This document shows positions 27,452-30,852 of a stretch of 55,532 nucleotides of DNA, in pieces. Both the position numbers and the translations under genes were made by a program. The notes under the pieces were generated by a model that was not told the DNA's origin, did no database searches, and saw only the letters and a list, made by a program, of their open reading frames with translations. Position 1 is the stretch's first letter. Each line of letters opens with the position of its first letter. The stretch lies in NCBI GenBank assembly GCA_964366515.1, contig CAYIUF010000002.1, forward strand, positions 1 to 55,532. The letters run 5' to 3'. The stretch is from an uncultured Gammaproteobacteria bacterium (lineage in GTDB: Bacteria > Patescibacteriota > Microgenomatia > UBA8517 > UBA10165).

Positions 27452-27501
27452 CCATACTCGCTTTAATGATTTGAATCATCGAAGTAAATAAGCATGGAAA
27501 T

Positions 27502-27536
27502 GCCCCGCATTTGGATTTGTTGTCCGTTTGCGGGGC
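27502..27536 (-). terminator. GC-rich hairpin ending islet 2
   Basis: GCCCCGCA(27502-27509)/TGCGGGGC(27529-27536), 15 nt after the stop at 27552. Confidence 0.45.
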
Positions 27537-27551
27537 TAAATTTTGGGGCTT

Positions 27552-28028
27552 TTAGTCGTAGAAGACCATTTCTTCAGTGGTCATCACGACTTCAGCCAGT
27601 TGGCGATTCTTGATGTTCAGGCCTTGCTCCATCCGATGTATGTTCTTCTCGGCATTCCAGGTCCAAACACTTTGCGTTCCTCCGGGAGCGGTTAGCAGAA
27701 CATCAATGCCGGACATCCCTTTGTCTTTGAGGAACCGTTGAATGGGCGCTTCGGGACGCTCCTCCAGGTTGTGGAAAGCTGACTGAGAGTCGAACTTGTG
27801 CAGGTCGGCTGTTGTAACCTTGAGTTCAGTTGTTGACACCAACCAAGTGCCTCCGACTCCGTCGCTTGAAATATGGCGGTGGGTTCTTGATTCCTGGTTC
27901 CATCTCCAGAGTGTCGGTTTCTGGTCGGGCAGGTTGGATAGAACCAGCTTGACATTCCGTCCGGACATTCTTTTCTCGATTAGCAGTGCCTGGACTGCCA
28001 GATGGGAGAGATTGTATTCCCCGGTCAA
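27552..28028 (-). CDS. Unknown protein made of two tandem ~70-aa repeats (158 aa)
   Basis: AAGGAGG lies 6 nt before an in-frame TTG at 28028, which overlaps the upstream stop (TTGA). Internal repeat: KRMSGRNVKLVLSNLPDQKPTLWRWNQESRTHRH vs KGMSGIDVLLTAPGGTQSVWTWNAEKNIHRM. Confidence 0.6.
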   Translation of the reverse strand: MTGEYNLSHLAVQALLIEKRMSGRNVKLVLSNLPDQKPTLWRWNQESRTHRHISSDGVGGTWLVSTTELKVTTADLHKFDSQSAFHNLEERPEAPIQRFLKDKGMSGIDVLLTAPGGTQSVWTWNAEKNIHRMEQGLNIKNRQLAEVVMTTEEMVFYD

Positions 28029-28327
28029 ATCTGACCTCCTTTTTCTAGTATGTCGAAAATGACCCCAACGGGCAACCAGACAGTTGGCGGTTTCCAAACC
28101 GGACGTCTGCGTGAACCCCAGGTTTTGTTGACCGGCGTCACAACGATTGTTTCGGTGTCACGTCGTGAGAGCATTCGACAGCGAACTGGACCACGGCAGA
28201 CAAGGACATGGCCAATCTTGGCGCAAGCCTTGTCTGAGAGTACTGCCCAGGTATTTTGACCCCACCTTGCGATAGGACCAGTGGGCGAGTCTACGAACTG
28301 AATCTTCTGGACTGCTCCTGCGGCCAT
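28025..28327 (-). CDS. Unknown 100-aa protein, paralog of the 32314..32697 product
   Basis: AAGGAG lies 5 nt before the ATG. Shares F-x3-P-x-G..WG-x-N and G-x-V-[IL]-V-x2-GPV-[QR]-C with the islet-3 protein. Confidence 0.6.
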   Translation of the reverse strand: MAAGAVQKIQFVDSPTGPIARWGQNTWAVLSDKACAKIGHVLVCRGPVRCRMLSRRDTETIVVTPVNKTWGSRRRPVWKPPTVWLPVGVIFDILEKGGQI

Positions 28328-28539
28328 TCCGTCTCCTTAAGTTGTGTGTGTGCTTTTTTAGAAAACGAACGATTCGCTTCCCTCTCGGAAAATATAAATG
28401 TATTAGCGCAATTTATTGCGCGCAGACTAAAGTCTGCTAATACGCTTCTACTCTTTGAGAGTGTGCCGGGCGGGGAGAGTGAACAAGTGAACAAGTCACA
28501 AGTCAAATTCACAAATCCCTTCCCGGACTTTGGAGGAGA
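28328..28539 (-). promoter_or_regulatory. Structured leader module, copy A
   Basis: Reverse strand reads TTGACT(28506-28501)-17-TTCACT(28483-28478). 8-mer direct repeats at 28479-28514. Outer stem CCTCTC(28381-28386)/TTTGAGAG(28454-28461) encloses GTATTA/TAATAC plus hairpins 28406-28421 and 28422-28437. CGAA-CGA-TTCG palindrome within 28361-28380. Confidence 0.5.
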
Positions 28540-28644
28540 TTAGCCAGCGGCCGCGTATCTTCCTAAGGCGTAGAACAGCCACGCTGTTGCTAGCACACAG
28601 GAAGTCATGAAAAATGCGACAATGGCAACCTTTAATCGACTCAT
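28540..28644 (-). CDS. Unannotated 34-aa hydrophobic peptide (MSRLKVAIVAFFMTSCVLATAWLFYALGRYAAAG)
   Basis: Below the ORF-track size cutoff. AAAGGA lies 7 nt before the ATG at 28644, 13 nt after the upstream stop. One predicted TM helix. Resembles the peptide at 29168..29263 (M-x2-LKV start). Confidence 0.5.
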   Translation of the reverse strand: MSRLKVAIVAFFMTSCVLATAWLFYALGRYAAAG

Positions 28645-28656
28645 CTTTGGTTCCTT

Positions 28657-29007
28657 TCAGGCCTGTGCTTGGTACAAAGGCAAAGCTGCCCATGTGCGGA
28701 CTTGCACCATTCGTCGCTCTTCTTCTTCAGCTACCCTTGCCTCCATGGCATCCTTGGCCTTGAAGTATTCGCAGGTTGGGCAGGTGCAGTTTTCTTCGCC
28801 CCAACAGTCAATGGTCGAATTGTACTCGGGGTGCCTGTCCTCGTAGGACATCATCCAGTCATGGGCGTCAAACATTGATTGGGCTGAGAACCGTTTCTGT
28901 GCCAACTGGCACAGGGGACATAAGTCCAGTTCGAGTACTCAGGTGAAGGTGTGCTCGGCAGGGAACCTGCGCGTGCACTGACTGCACTGAACGGTTTTGG
29001 GCTCCAT
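28657..29007 (-). pseudogene. Cys-rich zinc-ribbon ORF (116 codons) interrupted by one in-frame TGA at 28941-28939
   Basis: AAGGAGG lies 5 nt before the ATG at 29007: MEPKTVQCSQCTRRFPAEHTFT-TGA-VLELDLCPLCQLAQKRF...CWGEENCTCPTC... The TGA splits a CxxC-x19-CxxC ribbon. The TTG start at 28905 in the ORF track has no SD. Confidence 0.5.
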
Positions 29008-29167
29008 CTTCTCCTCCTTGGTTTTTGATGTGCAAATTTGAAAACGACGATTCGTTTTCCTCTCAAAACCTGCAATTTTTGTAGATTTTGAGAGAGGCCG
29101 GGTAGAGATTGTCGTTGTGATGTTATCACATTGATTTTCTCCACCCGGCGGTTCATCATGCAGGACC
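29008..29167 (-). promoter_or_regulatory. Structured leader module, copy B
   Basis: 29022-29074 are nearly identical to 30108-30160. Palindrome GAAAACGACGATTCGTTTTC at 29040-29059. Stem CCTCTCAAAA(29059-29068)/TTTTGAGAGAGG(29086-29097). Outer CCGGGTAGAGA..TCTCCACCCGG encloses GTGAT-GTT-ATCAC. Confidence 0.5.
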
Positions 29168-29263
29168 CTAGATCAATCTTGCGATGAGCACACAGAGTAT
29201 GCCCACTGGAATGGCGATTGAAAGAAGGGAACAGGCGAACGAAACCTTTAAAAGTGCGTTCAT
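29168..29263 (-). CDS. Unannotated 31-aa hydrophobic peptide (MNALLKVSFACSLLSIAIPVGILCVLIARLI)
   Basis: GGAAGGAGG lies 5 nt before the ATG at 29263. The ATG overlaps the upstream TGA (ATGA). One TM helix. Confidence 0.55.
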   Translation of the reverse strand: MNALLKVSFACSLLSIAIPVGILCVLIARLI

Positions 29264-30090
29264 GACTGCCTCCTTCCGAGTACCTCTACAGGATCGGGCC
29301 AGTCGGACGTCAAGTATGCCGTCAGTTGATCTTGACGTTCGGTCCATTCCCGGCACTCAGGGCAGTTTTGAGACGATAAGATCGGTGCGTCGAGCTTTCG
29401 GCCCGCGTCGATCTCGCTCATCTGCTTGCCGCCTCCGAGTTTGCGAACTTCTTTGAGAGTCATCTCCGATACGTGCCCGCAGGGACAGAACTGCACGACC
29501 TCGAGGTCGCTTGGGGTACGAGGTCTTTCGGTTTGGGTCGATTTCTCGACTTTGCCTCCGAGTTTGAAAACCTCGTAGCCGTCTTTGATTTGCCTAAAGG
29601 CGACGGCCTTCTGACTCTCGTCGGTGATGGTCACGACACAGCCGTTGAACTCCTGAGCAAACCTTGCCTCGGAATGGCTGAGCCTGCCAACCGCAAACGC
29701 ATGTAGGAGTGCAACCGGCGCCTGGGCGTGGCATGGAAAGAGGTTTATATAGACCTCCTCCTGCACACGTTCGACTGGATCCACGTCTGGGGTCAGAAGT
29801 TTCTGCATAACGACAGCGTAAGCCGTCGTCACAGAAGCCATAGCCGCGTTGACTGCGTAAGGCAAAATCGCCTCAGGCTTCATACGTTTCTCTAGGGCTT
29901 CATTCTTCGCCGCCACGTAGGCTCTTATCACCTCCGGGCGATGGTCGAATACAGAAACGACCCCGATCCTGTTCCTGCCCAGGAGGTGGTACTGCAAGCA
30001 GTCTCCGCCCGGCATGAGATAGAACGAATGGGGATATAAGGCGCGCAAGCTGACAGTTGCGTCAGCCTCGACGAGCTTAATTTTTTGCAT
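29260..30090 (-). CDS. Unknown 276-aa protein with C-terminal Cys4 zinc ribbon
   Basis: GGAGGA lies 6 nt before the ATG at 30090 (MQKIKLVEAD...). FCPCGH...NCPECREW forms the ribbon. Confidence 0.65.
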   Translation of the reverse strand: MQKIKLVEADATVSLRALYPHSFYLMPGGDCLQYHLLGRNRIGVVSVFDHRPEVIRAYVAAKNEALEKRMKPEAILPYAVNAAMASVTTAYAVVMQKLLTPDVDPVERVQEEVYINLFPCHAQAPVALLHAFAVGRLSHSEARFAQEFNGCVVTITDESQKAVAFRQIKDGYEVFKLGGKVEKSTQTERPRTPSDLEVVQFCPCGHVSEMTLKEVRKLGGGKQMSEIDAGRKLDAPILSSQNCPECREWTERQDQLTAYLTSDWPDPVEVLGRRQS

Positions 30091-30279
30091 TTCCAATCCT
30101 CCGTTTGTTTTTGATGTGCAAACTTGAAAACGACGATTCGTTTTCCTCTCAAAACCTACAAATGTTTACGAGTCCACCTTAAAGGTGGAGGGCTAAATAG
30201 GCTTTGAGAGAGCCGGGTAGAGAAAGTGAACGAGTGAACAAGTCACCAGTCAAATTCACAATCCATCCCGGCGAGCCGT
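30091..30279 (-). promoter_or_regulatory. Structured leader module, copy C
   Basis: Reverse strand reads TTGACT(30253-30248)-17-TTCACT(30230-30225). 8-mer repeats at 30226-30261. Stem 30145-30154/30203-30212 encloses hairpin CCACCTT-A-AAGGTGG (30174-30188). Palindrome at 30126-30145. Confidence 0.5.
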
Positions 30280-30696
30280 TTAGGTGGTTGAAAGCGCAGG
30301 TTCGCGCTCGCGTACGTATTCGCGCACTGAGTGGTCAGTTAGACCGTATGAGATCCTTGATCCCGGTCGAATATTCTCGAGTAGGGAATCCCCATTTTTG
30401 TCTAACCTGAAAACGTGCCGGCCGTCGACTGCGATGTGGAGTTGGCTGGCAAGATCTCGAAATTTGCCTCTAAAGATAAGGCTGAGGTAAAGAGCTTCTT
30501 TGTCCAGCCACTCTAGGCGGATTGAGAATCCGGCTTCGTTGATCCAGCGCGGGTTCCAGTCAGTTGGAGGCGCCTTATGAGACCAAATTGTCCGGTTAAG
30601 GATGCCCATTACCCACTGGATGTCTGCGTCCAGCTCCTGGCTACGATGCTTTTCTCCGATCCTGCGCTTCTGAATGCGCCTTCTTGCCCTTGCCAT
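30280..30696 (-). CDS. Unknown 138-aa protein with basic N-terminus
   Basis: AAGGAG lies 7 nt before the ATG. MARARRRIQKRRIGEKHR... No family recognised. Confidence 0.6.
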   Translation of the reverse strand: MARARRRIQKRRIGEKHRSQELDADIQWVMGILNRTIWSHKAPPTDWNPRWINEAGFSIRLEWLDKEALYLSLIFRGKFRDLASQLHIAVDGRHVFRLDKNGDSLLENIRPGSRISYGLTDHSVREYVREREPALSTT

Positions 30697-30741
30697 GTCA
30701 AAACTCCTTAATGTGCAAAATTAACTCTACTAGGCACACAT

Positions 30742-30770
30742 TGTACCACAAAACCCATAGTTTGTCAAGC
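30742..30770 (-). promoter_or_regulatory. Near-consensus sigma70 promoter of the first islet-2 gene
   Basis: Reverse strand reads TTGACA(30770-30765), 17 nt, TACAAT(30747-30742), preceded by TGG (extended -10). Confidence 0.6.
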
Positions 30771-30852
30771 CCATAGCTCAACGTGTTAAAGCGTGTTAAG
30801 TTGAGTGTTGGGAGTTTTTGTCATGCGCTGGGGCGCGCACTGAAGTGCGCTA

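Follow-up and report, generated by a model that had tools for sequence, protein, structure and literature searches.

A GC-rich islet of small orphan genes beside glyQS in a Microgenomates-like bacterium from groundwater

Introduction

Phage morons, a concept of Hendrix and co-workers, are reportedly autonomous promoter-gene-terminator units inserted between adjacent genes. The early genes of phage T7 are transcribed into a polycistronic RNA from a head promoter, and their cistrons are split by RNase III processing hairpins. In T4-type phages, promoter-early stem-loop cassettes (PeSLs) combine a strong sigma-70 promoter and a terminator stem-loop between small orphan genes (PMC2839356; PMC4122927). 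Cluster K mycobacteriophages carry start-associated sequences (SAS) of 13 bp that include the Shine-Dalgarno sequence (SD), and the extended form (ESAS) is a single pair of 17-bp inverted repeats (PMC3203893). On a larger scale, 120 genomic islands of 2.7-45 kb were found in 63 metagenome-assembled genomes (MAGs) of aquifer Patescibacteria (PMC12455944). Here we describe a locus that shares some features with each of these systems. It lies in a 55,532-nt stretch of DNA, hereafter the window (contig CAYIUF010000002.1 of assembly GCA_964366515.1), and is a GC-rich islet of seven small open reading frames (ORFs), g1 to g7, between the minus-strand genes for glycyl-tRNA synthetase (glyQS) and a membrane protein. 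Its extent was taken as 27409-30852 (3.44 kb).

We propose that the islet is probably a horizontally acquired, integrase-less accessory segment, a moron-like array of orphan gene cassettes that stems from the pool of phages and other mobile genetic elements (MGEs) and is expressed as one operon. Two further insertions of this kind lie on the same contig. This is ordinary horizontal gene transfer in a small, integrase-less form and not a new kind of system.

Results

The islet interrupts a conserved housekeeping string

The contig carries the dcw cluster, recO, glyQS and mur ligases, and the host is a Microgenomates-like bacterium of the candidate phyla radiation (CPR) from Hainich groundwater. 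Its GlyRS is at most 61% identical to those of GTDB species representatives, the best matches being Daviesbacteria and other CPR/Patescibacteria MAGs. In the nearest of these, the Daviesbacteria MAGs L001, L002 and L027, the gene order is orf658(DUF4012)-recO-glyQS-(~297-aa N-anchored protein)-mraZ-rsmH-ftsL, followed by a gene for a penicillin-binding protein (PBP). L001 and L002 leave no gap on either side of glyQS: its stop abuts or overlaps the next start, and recO does the same with glyQS. The 250-aa membrane protein of the window is a weak homologue of the ~297-aa neighbour in the same position (E=2e-7).

Compared with this conserved string, the window has 3.44 kb of extra DNA between glyQS (30853-32166) and the membrane-protein gene (26656-27408) and 0.6 kb between recO and glyQS, both GC-rich. 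Because the nearest relatives pack recO, glyQS, the membrane-protein gene and mraZ so tightly, we conclude that the islet is inserted between normally adjacent housekeeping genes. The islet site next to glyQS, whose occupancy in related genomes had been raised in a preliminary description of the locus, is unoccupied in L001 and L002, where the flanks abut, and L027 has the same gene order. The surroundings of the islet (recO, glyQS, mraZ, rsmH, dcw cluster) are a cellular string and not a prophage.

Independent assemblies of the same population were located by exact-protein look-ups. They derive from replicates of Hainich well H43, 0.1-µm fraction (ENA ERZ1292629, ERZ1292632 and ERZ1292626, R1-R3), and from the Logan assembly of ERR3858116. 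Together, their contigs span window positions 16105-33528 at 99.6-100% identity and 2-5x coverage: L104 (29342-16105, 2 mismatches), L105 (30129-19106, 100%), L106 (28275-24705, 100%), L109 (33528-29332, 100%), L110 (31568-29439, 99.95%), L111 (31464-30174, 99.6%) and L112 (31121-30216, 100%). The junction from glyQS to g1 is covered by L110-L112, and all junctions of the islet, of the insert between recO and glyQS and of a further islet at 18-20 kb recur in the replicates. A chimeric assembly had been considered from the outset; with every junction spanned by independent assemblies, the islet is real and not an assembly chimera.

Composition and translation signals differ from the backbone

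The islet has an overall G+C content of 51.5% (0.515), against 41.0±3.0% in the backbone. The backbone is 38-44% G+C; in 500-nt windows it averages 0.410±0.030 with a 99th percentile of 0.479, and all 29 islet windows reach at least 0.486 (mean 0.517). The tetranucleotide usage of the islet correlates with that of the backbone at 0.61, compared with at least 0.77 for every 3.3-kb backbone chunk. G+C at third codon positions (GC3) is 0.50-0.66 in the seven islet ORFs and 0.29-0.43 in 45 backbone ORFs. The profile is thus far from flat, both in 500-nt windows and in tetranucleotides. The preliminary description had put the backbone at 28-40%; the jump that it reported is real, but smaller than this value implied. 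Nor is GC-rich DNA limited to 27490-30852: further segments lie at 32167-32769 and 18046-20374.

SDs of the AAGGAG/GGAGG type stand 5-7 nt before the start of six of the seven islet ORFs, and g5 has a weaker AAAGGAA. The claim that every islet gene has an AAGGAG(G)-type SD therefore holds for all but g5, and the reported TTG initiation is found at g7. The backbone genes looked at there (mraZ, ftsA, murC and glyQS) were described as lacking SDs. In our counts, no SD core precedes 31 of the 45 backbone ORFs, and a match of at least 6 nt occurs in just 3 of them, counts that are approximate because the backbone starts are uncurated longest-ORF starts. Two adjacent dcw genes (starts 14313 and 15611) bear a full TAAGGAG. 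As most backbone genes are without a recognisable SD core, the host may initiate translation mainly independently of SDs.

Layout of the islet

All islet genes are read from the minus strand, in the order promoter P(g1), g1, leader module C, g2/g3, leader module B, g4, g5, leader module A, g6/g7, a GC-rich hairpin and a promoter that faces the host gene. P(g1) (30740-30768) is TTGACA-17-TACAAT with a TG extended -10 and scores 11 of 12 matches in the promoter scan. The closing hairpin (27502-27536; GCCCCGCA...UGCGGGGC) is followed by AUUU and folds with -20.7 kcal/mol; a strict terminator scan did not pick it up, its loop being long and its U-run short. The outward promoter, TTGACA-17-CAGAAT (27423-27451, minus strand), is supported by the promoter scan and by synteny. 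Strong promoters occur only at the heads of units. The near-consensus promoter before the 138-aa gene, the host-type promoter and the closing hairpin of the preliminary description were all recovered, and its picture of a self-contained, four-unit islet of uncharacterised genes that is foreign by composition is borne out.

A direct repeat, TTAACACG(C)TTTAACACG, is nested in an inverted repeat CTCAAC...GTTGAG at 30772-30800 on the minus strand, just upstream of the P(g1) -35 element. It could be a candidate operator for a regulator of the islet promoter.

The islet genes encode orphan proteins and small membrane peptides

The promoter-proximal gene g1 (30280-30696) encodes a 138-aa orphan with an Arg-rich N-terminus (MARARRRIQKRRIGEKHRSQ) and has a TAAGGAG SD 7 nt upstream. 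The identical gene is called in four independent assemblies. The protein has no match in Pfam, PHROGs, PADLOC, NCBIfam, the PDB or viral contigs (IMG/VR). Arg-rich stretches like this N-terminus bind RNA hairpins in lambda N, Rev and Tat. We regard g1 as a small Arg-rich, putative nucleic-acid binder, which is offered as a lead only.

ORF g2 (29260-30090) encodes a 276-aa protein with an orphan N-terminal region of ~190 aa and a C-terminal zinc ribbon (residues ~190-268, nt 29287-29523). A word search of 5.8e9 clustered proteins returned only g2 itself. Its open frame runs for 301 codons from stop to stop, more than in any of 300 shuffles (maximum 252). With a shuffle median of 130 codons, g1, g4 and g6 are not significant by length, and g2 alone exceeds chance. 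The short ORFs are supported by well-spaced SD sites, by two 4-nt overlaps and by a coding-like pattern of G+C across codon positions. These overlaps join the g2 stop to the start of g3 (ATGA) and the g6 stop to the start of g7 (TTGA), and we infer that both pairs would be translationally coupled.

The two smallest products are single-pass hydrophobic peptides. One, g3 (29168-29263), has 31 aa, an AAGGAGG SD and a Kyte-Doolittle maximum of 2.60, and the other, g5 (28540-28644), has 34 aa and a maximum of 2.19 behind its AAAGGAA site.

Between them lies g4 (28657-29007), a Cys-rich frame of 116 codons that had been listed as a zinc-ribbon ORF. It is interrupted by an in-frame TGA at codon 23 (28941-28939), located between CSQC and CPLC, which splits a CxxC-x14-CxxC zinc-ribbon motif. 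Three replicate assemblies, among them L104 and L105, have the identical TGA. A sequencing error is therefore excluded, and the codon is either fixed nonsense or a recoding site. Elsewhere, TGA acts as a stop in islet and backbone genes alike. As the same TGA also recurs in independent assemblies, g4 is probably a pseudogene and at best a read-through product. The remaining ORFs of the earlier list (138, 276, 31, 34, 100 and 158 aa) are present as described.

The last pair comprises g6 (28025-28327), a 100-aa orphan with a TAAGGAG SD, no family match and an identical gene call in L104 and L105, and g7 (27552-28028), which starts with TTG and encodes a 158-aa orphan. The g7 protein is a tandem duplication of a ~75-aa unit, and its self-alignment score of 66 compares with 23.5±4.5 in 500 shuffles, indicating internal duplication at the protein level. 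The word search of 5.8e9 proteins found only g7 itself, and it has no relatives in IMG/VR. Its best match in the family screens, PHROG 14079 (E=0.005), is not significant, and an AlphaFold2 single-sequence model (pLDDT 37) was unusable.

None of the products screened, among them u127 (the protein encoded between recO and glyQS) and three ORFs of the 18-20 kb islet, has a significant match in Pfam, PHROGs, PADLOC or NCBIfam; g3 and g5 were too short and were left unscanned. Sequence searches of the PDB with g1, g7 and u127 found nothing, and no relationship links the islet proteins to one another. No islet product screened matches an integrase, transposase, reverse transcriptase (RT), nuclease, ATPase or recombinase family. 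These screens, which also returned no housekeeping family, agree with the earlier statements that no product belongs to a named family and that the islet lacks an integrase, transposase, RT, nuclease, ATPase or known toxin-antitoxin (TA) or defence gene. The most likely cargo roles are phage-type accessory functions, for example a membrane-acting exclusion or host interaction, but this is a guess and the weakest step of our interpretation.

Three repeated leader modules precede the downstream units

The modules fill the entire gaps between units: 189 nt between g1 and g2 (module C, 30091-30279), 160 nt between g3 and g4 (module B, 29008-29167) and 212 nt between g5 and g6 (module A, 28328-28539). 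Alignment, folds and a consensus structure show that each folds on the gene strand into three hairpins, P0, P1 and P2. P0 stands on a conserved CCGGG/CCCGG base and is capped by a GUGA/UCAC apex. The base of P1 is CUCUCAAA/UUUGAGAG, and the P1 apex ranges from a 3-nt loop to the branched 60-nt insert of module A. P2 is an 8-bp hairpin, GAAAACGA-AUCG-UCGUUUUC, and an A-rich linker with TTTGCACA leads from it to the SD.

The fold z-scores of the modules are -3.8 to -4.3. Each copy can adopt all three hairpins, and the differences between copies include G-U pairs and a few compensatory changes. RNAalifold reports 32 pairs, four of them changed on both sides, in three copies from one locus; this covariation is no more than suggestive. 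The copies are also mosaic. In the 5' box, A and C are 80% identical and B is ~30% identical to either, and in the 3' two-thirds, B and C are 90-92% identical and A shares 61-66%. Assemblies break inside these repeats, as in L105, which begins at 30129 within module C.

The modules have no counterpart in the collections searched. Rfam 15 gave nothing at the gathering score on the whole contig and nothing at E<=5 in 27300-33000. The DNA pattern GAGAGGRAARCGAATCGT..GTTTTC occurs nowhere in the viral, genome and metagenome collections searched, and an nhmmer profile of the module found only the three window copies in the window and all fetched loci. The core sites of attC (R'' RYYYAAC, R' GTTRRRY) occur on neither strand of any module.

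Modules A, B and C contain neither a sigma-70 promoter nor an intrinsic-terminator consensus, according to the promoter and terminator scan. A TTGACT-17-TTCACT sequence in A and C was considered as a promoter and fails the consensus scan. The idea that repeated leader modules drive the units thus stands as regards the three repeats, but driving is not supported. We infer that the modules would be RNA-level elements and that the islet would be transcribed as a single operon.

The zinc ribbon of g2 belongs to a family with mainly phage-like contexts

An exhaustive HMMER scan of 1.84 billion protein representatives with g2 found 47 relatives, all of which align to residues ~190-268 alone (40-55% identity, E 5e-16 to 1e-3). 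Most are 55-130 aa long. They define a domain of ~65 aa with the pattern VQFCPCG[HC]-x~20-GG-x2-Q-L-x2-I-x2-G-x-KLDAPI-x-S-x2-C-x2-C. The invariant columns, four Cys and the VQF, GG..Q and KLDAP motifs, are kept in g2, which reads VQFCPCGH...GG..Q...KLDAPI..S..C..C. The domain is the sole confidently modelled part of g2 (AlphaFold2 pLDDT 92-97). It has no match in Pfam, PHROGs or the PDB, a profile search of the PDB included, and Foldseek against the PDB and BFVD found no significant neighbour (best E ~0.03). A weak likeness to the Fur family was rejected, with TM-scores below 0.25.

The family is rare and its members are all metagenomic, most of them known from a single contig. In L081/L082, the zinc ribbon is part of a series of small ORFs on one strand, together with GP88, SprT-like, DUF932 and GIY-YIG/HNH endonuclease genes, and in L099 it shares a contig with a DUF932 gene. 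It is situated ~1.5 kb downstream of DUF932 in L081/L082 and ~4.6 kb upstream in L099, on contigs that differ in sequence. The combination of zinc ribbon and DUF932 may represent a conserved mobile-element neighbourhood. On the 430-kb IMG/VR contig L089, the domain ends a ~135-aa protein within a run of small genes. Other neighbours are an orphan N6/N4 DNA methylase (L096) and a dCMP deaminase (L098).

Region 6298-9806 of the phage-like contig L081 (JGI 3300037067) carries at least four promoter modules between small genes, each consisting of a stem-loop (GTTACTTTT..AAAAGTAA) and TTGAC-17-TGTATAAT. This arrangement is PeSL-like and lies outside T4-type phages.

L086/L087 have a chromosomal GC-rich patch (0.51-0.59 vs 0.33-0.46) between ComEC and a GmrSD-like gene; in L086 (JGI 3300065536) we delimited it as 2340-4100. 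Its three cassettes encode a transmembrane (TM) protein, a zinc-ribbon protein and another Cys-rich protein, and each has its own AT-rich promoter, which is not itself conserved, an AAGGAGG SD and a conserved terminator repeat. In the repeat module of L086, a long terminator hairpin is combined with the box TTTAAGCCAGGGA...ATAAAAA.TCCTTATG. Its terminator part is 89% identical between two full copies, and a third, partial copy follows the first gene. This patch is a second example of the GC-rich islet phenomenon.

Judged by these contexts, the zinc-ribbon family is part of a mobile, phage-like accessory gene pool. Since the family sits mainly in phage- or MGE-like runs of small genes, such a pool is the likely source of the islet. 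The islet DNA itself has no match in INPHARED phages. The window has two instances of a zinc ribbon followed by a TM mini-peptide, a succession that is not recurrent among 13 other loci with the family gene.

Two sibling insertions on the contig

The insert between recO and glyQS (u127 unit, 32167-32769, minus strand) has a G+C content of 0.519 and was recovered in L109. It contains a TTGAAA-18-TATAAT promoter with a TG (32760-32731), the leader AAATTCGCACAAGGAG and a 127-aa orphan ORF with a TTG start (32314-32697). Across the 55.5-kb contig, TTYGCACA has just four minus-strand occurrences, at 29036, 30122, 30719 and 32717. All four copies are directly upstream of an SD in GC-rich DNA, namely those of g1, module B, module C and u127. 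The common TTYGCACA-SD leader ties the segments on both sides of glyQS to one source.

Islet 2 (18046-20374, plus strand, 2.3 kb, G+C 0.482) lies between murC and a gene for a VirD4/TrwB-like ATPase and was recovered in L104. It encodes about eight small SD-led ORFs, four of them hydrophobic, and the plus-strand AAGGAG sites of the contig cluster there. Its first ORF encodes a basic 64-aa protein, and the leader TTGCAGTTTRAAAAGGAG is present twice. At its left edge (18059-18090), two extended -10 promoters stand back to back. The minus-strand one, TGTGGTACAAT, faces murC and is identical to the P(g1) -10 region (30750-30740), and the plus-strand one, TGGTATACT, faces islet 2. Each insertion is accompanied by a promoter for the host gene that was cut from its former upstream neighbour.

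The ATPase beside islet 2 is an 860-aa, coupling-protein-like protein of the TrwB/VirD4 type (p860; DUF8128 and DUF87 matches), and its minus-strand gene (20375-22957) separates islet 2 from the PBP gene. This gene is missing from the dcw string of the nearest Daviesbacteria, and versions with ~32% identity occur near glyQS in other MAGs, mostly Peregrinibacteria/Peribacteria.

Host gene ends beside the inserts have raised GC3

The composition of the inserts extends into some of the adjoining genes. GC3 is 0.42-0.60 in the first 200 codons of murC (17400-18045), compared with 0.20-0.40 in the rest of the gene. It is 0.50-0.57 in the last ~80 codons of glyQS (30853-31300), with no such rise in L001 and L002, and 0.53 in the last 40 codons of recO (32770-32890). 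Taken together, these gene ends, which adjoin the promoter-proximal edge of each insert, reach 0.42-0.60 against about 0.35. Their raised GC3 suggests that homologous recombination with DNA of a higher-GC relative brought in the islet together with its flanks. GlyRS has similar best protein matches for its N- and C-terminal parts, with no mosaic in identity. No target-site duplications or shared junction repeats were found, and no junction repeat of at least 9 nt flanks any one islet. The contig has no tRNA or tmRNA genes.

Discussion

A proposed mechanism

In the scheme we propose, P(g1) (30768-30740) would yield a ~3.2-kb polycistronic RNA that ends at the hairpin at 27502-27536, and strong SDs and coupling would drive translation in a host that mostly does without SDs. 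The modules could act on this RNA in processing, stability or translation punctuation, with the RNase III hairpins of T7 early RNA and SAS/ESAS as analogues. Being mosaic, they are probably also homologous DNA joints for swapping cassettes, like PeSLs in T4-type phages. The cargo would ultimately derive from the phage/MGE gene pool, possibly entering by homologous recombination from a higher-GC relative. The host gene cut off by the insertion would regain its expression from the outward promoter at 27451-27423.

Several observations weigh against parts of this scheme. The relatives used for synteny are distant, with 61% GlyRS identity, and when MraZ, the membrane protein, g1 and GlyRS were looked up as exact proteins, every configuration returned was occupied, with no empty-site allele from this population among them. 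(The gene index has no record of the 437-aa GlyRS model or of g2.) No donor was identified: the zinc ribbon is all that the islet has in common with any phage-like contig, and zinc-ribbon contigs from the same H43 groundwater samples have nothing else in common with the islets. The domain is absent from 50,697 sequenced phages (INPHARED) and 72,556 plasmids (PLSDB), and in L084/L095 it occurs in an ordinary chromosomal context, beside a small GIY-YIG gene and with no GC contrast. The GC3 spillover is noisy at this window size, isolated high windows occurring in control genes, and it is absent from p860 and from the membrane-protein gene. Transcription as one operon and any RNA-level role of the modules are read from the sequence, the closing hairpin has a weak U-tract, and the covariation of the modules comes from three copies of one locus. 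Sequestration of the SD by a conserved CUCU(A)CC was rejected as inconsistent across the modules, with P(unpaired) of 0.03, 0.72 and 0.69. Finally, searches of the islet products gave no homology or fold match from which protein functions could be read.

Alternative explanations

The strongly hydrophobic single-helix peptides g3 and g5, with 31 and 34 aa well within the size of such toxins (below ~60 aa), raise the question of whether the islet is a TA or abortive-infection locus. The peptides would then be toxins whose translation hinges on the zinc-ribbon ORF before them, in the way that hok relies on mok, with the structured leaders controlling expression. The overlap of g3 with the g2 stop (ATGA) and the highly structured leaders fit such a scheme, and defence genes often reside in small foreign islets. 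We nevertheless consider it unlikely. No product scanned matches PADLOC, Pfam or NCBIfam (g3 and g5 being too short to be scanned separately), the pairing of zinc ribbon and tiny TM peptide is not recurrent at the 13 other loci, and the SDs are not consistently sequestered. The partner of g5, g4, is interrupted by a stop. Near 28540-28644 and 29168-29263 there is no plus-strand promoter-like site, although a consensus scan cannot exclude one. Less likely again is a native, lineage-specific and highly expressed host locus whose high GC and SDs reflect selection for expression. Its promoters are indeed of the sigma-70 type like those of the host, with the extended -10 TGTGGTACAAT identical at P(g1) and before murC, and there are neither mobility genes nor target-site duplications. 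Against a native origin, the islet is missing from the conserved string of the relatives, whose flanks abut, its GC3 and tetranucleotide usage are far beyond the backbone range, and its products are orphans in databases of 5.8e9 and 1.8e9 proteins save for a domain with MGE-like contexts.

The arrangement of a head promoter followed by same-orientation units that are split by imperfect palindromes, with conserved bases, variable apices and strand-specific G-U pairs, is also what an integron-like array without an integrase (cluster of attC sites lacking integron integrases, CALIN) would show, the modules being attC sites with variable terminal structures and the head promoter Pc. We judge this very improbable: R''/R' core sites are missing on both strands of all modules, each module has three hairpins, a leader and an SD rather than one R''-L''/L'-R' hairpin, and there are two genes per unit. 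No tyrosine recombinase is among the islet products screened, a result that does not extend to the rest of the contig, which was not exhaustively screened. An assembly chimera, or a structured-RNA region with spurious ORFs, is effectively excluded. Assemblies do break at the modules (L105 starts at 30129), and ORFs of ~100-140 codons arise by chance at this composition (shuffle median 130). Every junction is nevertheless present in independent replicate assemblies, the 301-codon frame of g2 is beyond all shuffles and includes a domain with 47 relatives, and the internal duplication of g7 is significant at the protein level. Well-spaced SDs at every start and codon-position GC fit coding DNA, and the region has no Rfam match even at E<=5. 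An acquired, integrase-less array of accessory cassettes remains the reading that we prefer.

A more specific idea, which we put forward as a long shot, is that the modules are a new class of cis-acting RNA bound by the Arg-rich N-terminus of g1. They would form an N/nut-like circuit on CPR mobile DNA, for processive antitermination or translational activation, and also serve as recombinase-free joints for the exchange of cassettes by homologous recombination after natural DNA uptake. In accord with it, the g1 N-terminus resembles an Arg-rich motif, and the modules, all of which follow g1, precede each of the later units. They are furthermore structured on the gene strand, mosaic and without a match in Rfam or public collections.

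Significance

The locus is an assembly-validated example of a streamlined, ultra-small CPR genome that gains foreign genes without an integrase and exactly at tight gene junctions. The pattern of the inserts and the raised GC3 in adjoining gene ends point to DNA uptake and homologous recombination, a route in keeping with the view of CPR bacteria as dependent on scavenged DNA. SD-led foreign genes in a genome mostly without SDs are a natural test case for the translation of acquired genes. Current views are not overturned, and a specialist will not be surprised. The locus had been described as looking unlike an ordinary prophage remnant, an insertion sequence, or a known TA or defence locus. 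That much stands, but three insertions on one contig, a domain from the MGE pool, a broken g4 and the precedents (PMC12455944, PMC2839356, PMC3203893) make it more ordinary than it appeared.

Comparison with known systems

The islet resembles phage morons in having its own strong promoter, a closing hairpin and a deviant composition, in lying between genes that are adjacent in relatives and in carrying cargo without a named family, comparable to the non-essential cargo of morons. It differs in its location in a cellular housekeeping string, its seven ORFs, its internal repeated leaders and its outward promoter for the host gene.

As in PeSL cassettes, short repeated stem-loop modules flank small orphan genes, and the mosaicism of the copies suggests module-mediated shuffling. 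However, the islet modules have neither a sigma-70 promoter nor a U-tract terminator. They are 160-210 nt long, contain three hairpins, run into the SD and occur in three copies on a cellular chromosome. Genuinely PeSL-like repeats, with a stem-loop or terminator and a promoter, are found at the zinc-ribbon loci L081 and L086.

The likeness to SAS/ESAS lies in a conserved motif just upstream of some starts (here TTYGCACA and the SD, at four starts) that comes after imperfect inverted repeats whose spacer varies, and in a presumed translational role. The sequences are unrelated, and the islet modules have three helices with large variable apices. With T7 early genes, the islet would share a polycistronic RNA from one head promoter, its cistrons split by long, irregular, conserved hairpins, but its helices of 11-16 bp are shorter than classical RNase III substrates.

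The islet and the genomic islands of Patescibacteria have in common that they are acquired segments of deviant composition in CPR genomes from aquifers. With 3.4 kb, the islet lies near the lower limit of the size range of these islands, and its siblings of 0.6 and 2.3 kb fall short of that range. Of the features by which genomic islands are recognised, it has a deviant composition and is absent from the site in relatives, but it has neither an integrase nor a tRNA or direct-repeat target. No cargo protein belongs to a named family.

Small islands are already known to be common in Patescibacteria, and phages are known to have orphan cassettes split by repeated regulatory modules. What this locus adds are integrase-less, self-expressing cassette arrays of less than 4 kb in tight CPR housekeeping junctions, with outward promoters that would repair the cut operon, a ~65-aa zinc-ribbon family without a name or structure, and a three-hairpin leader without an Rfam match.

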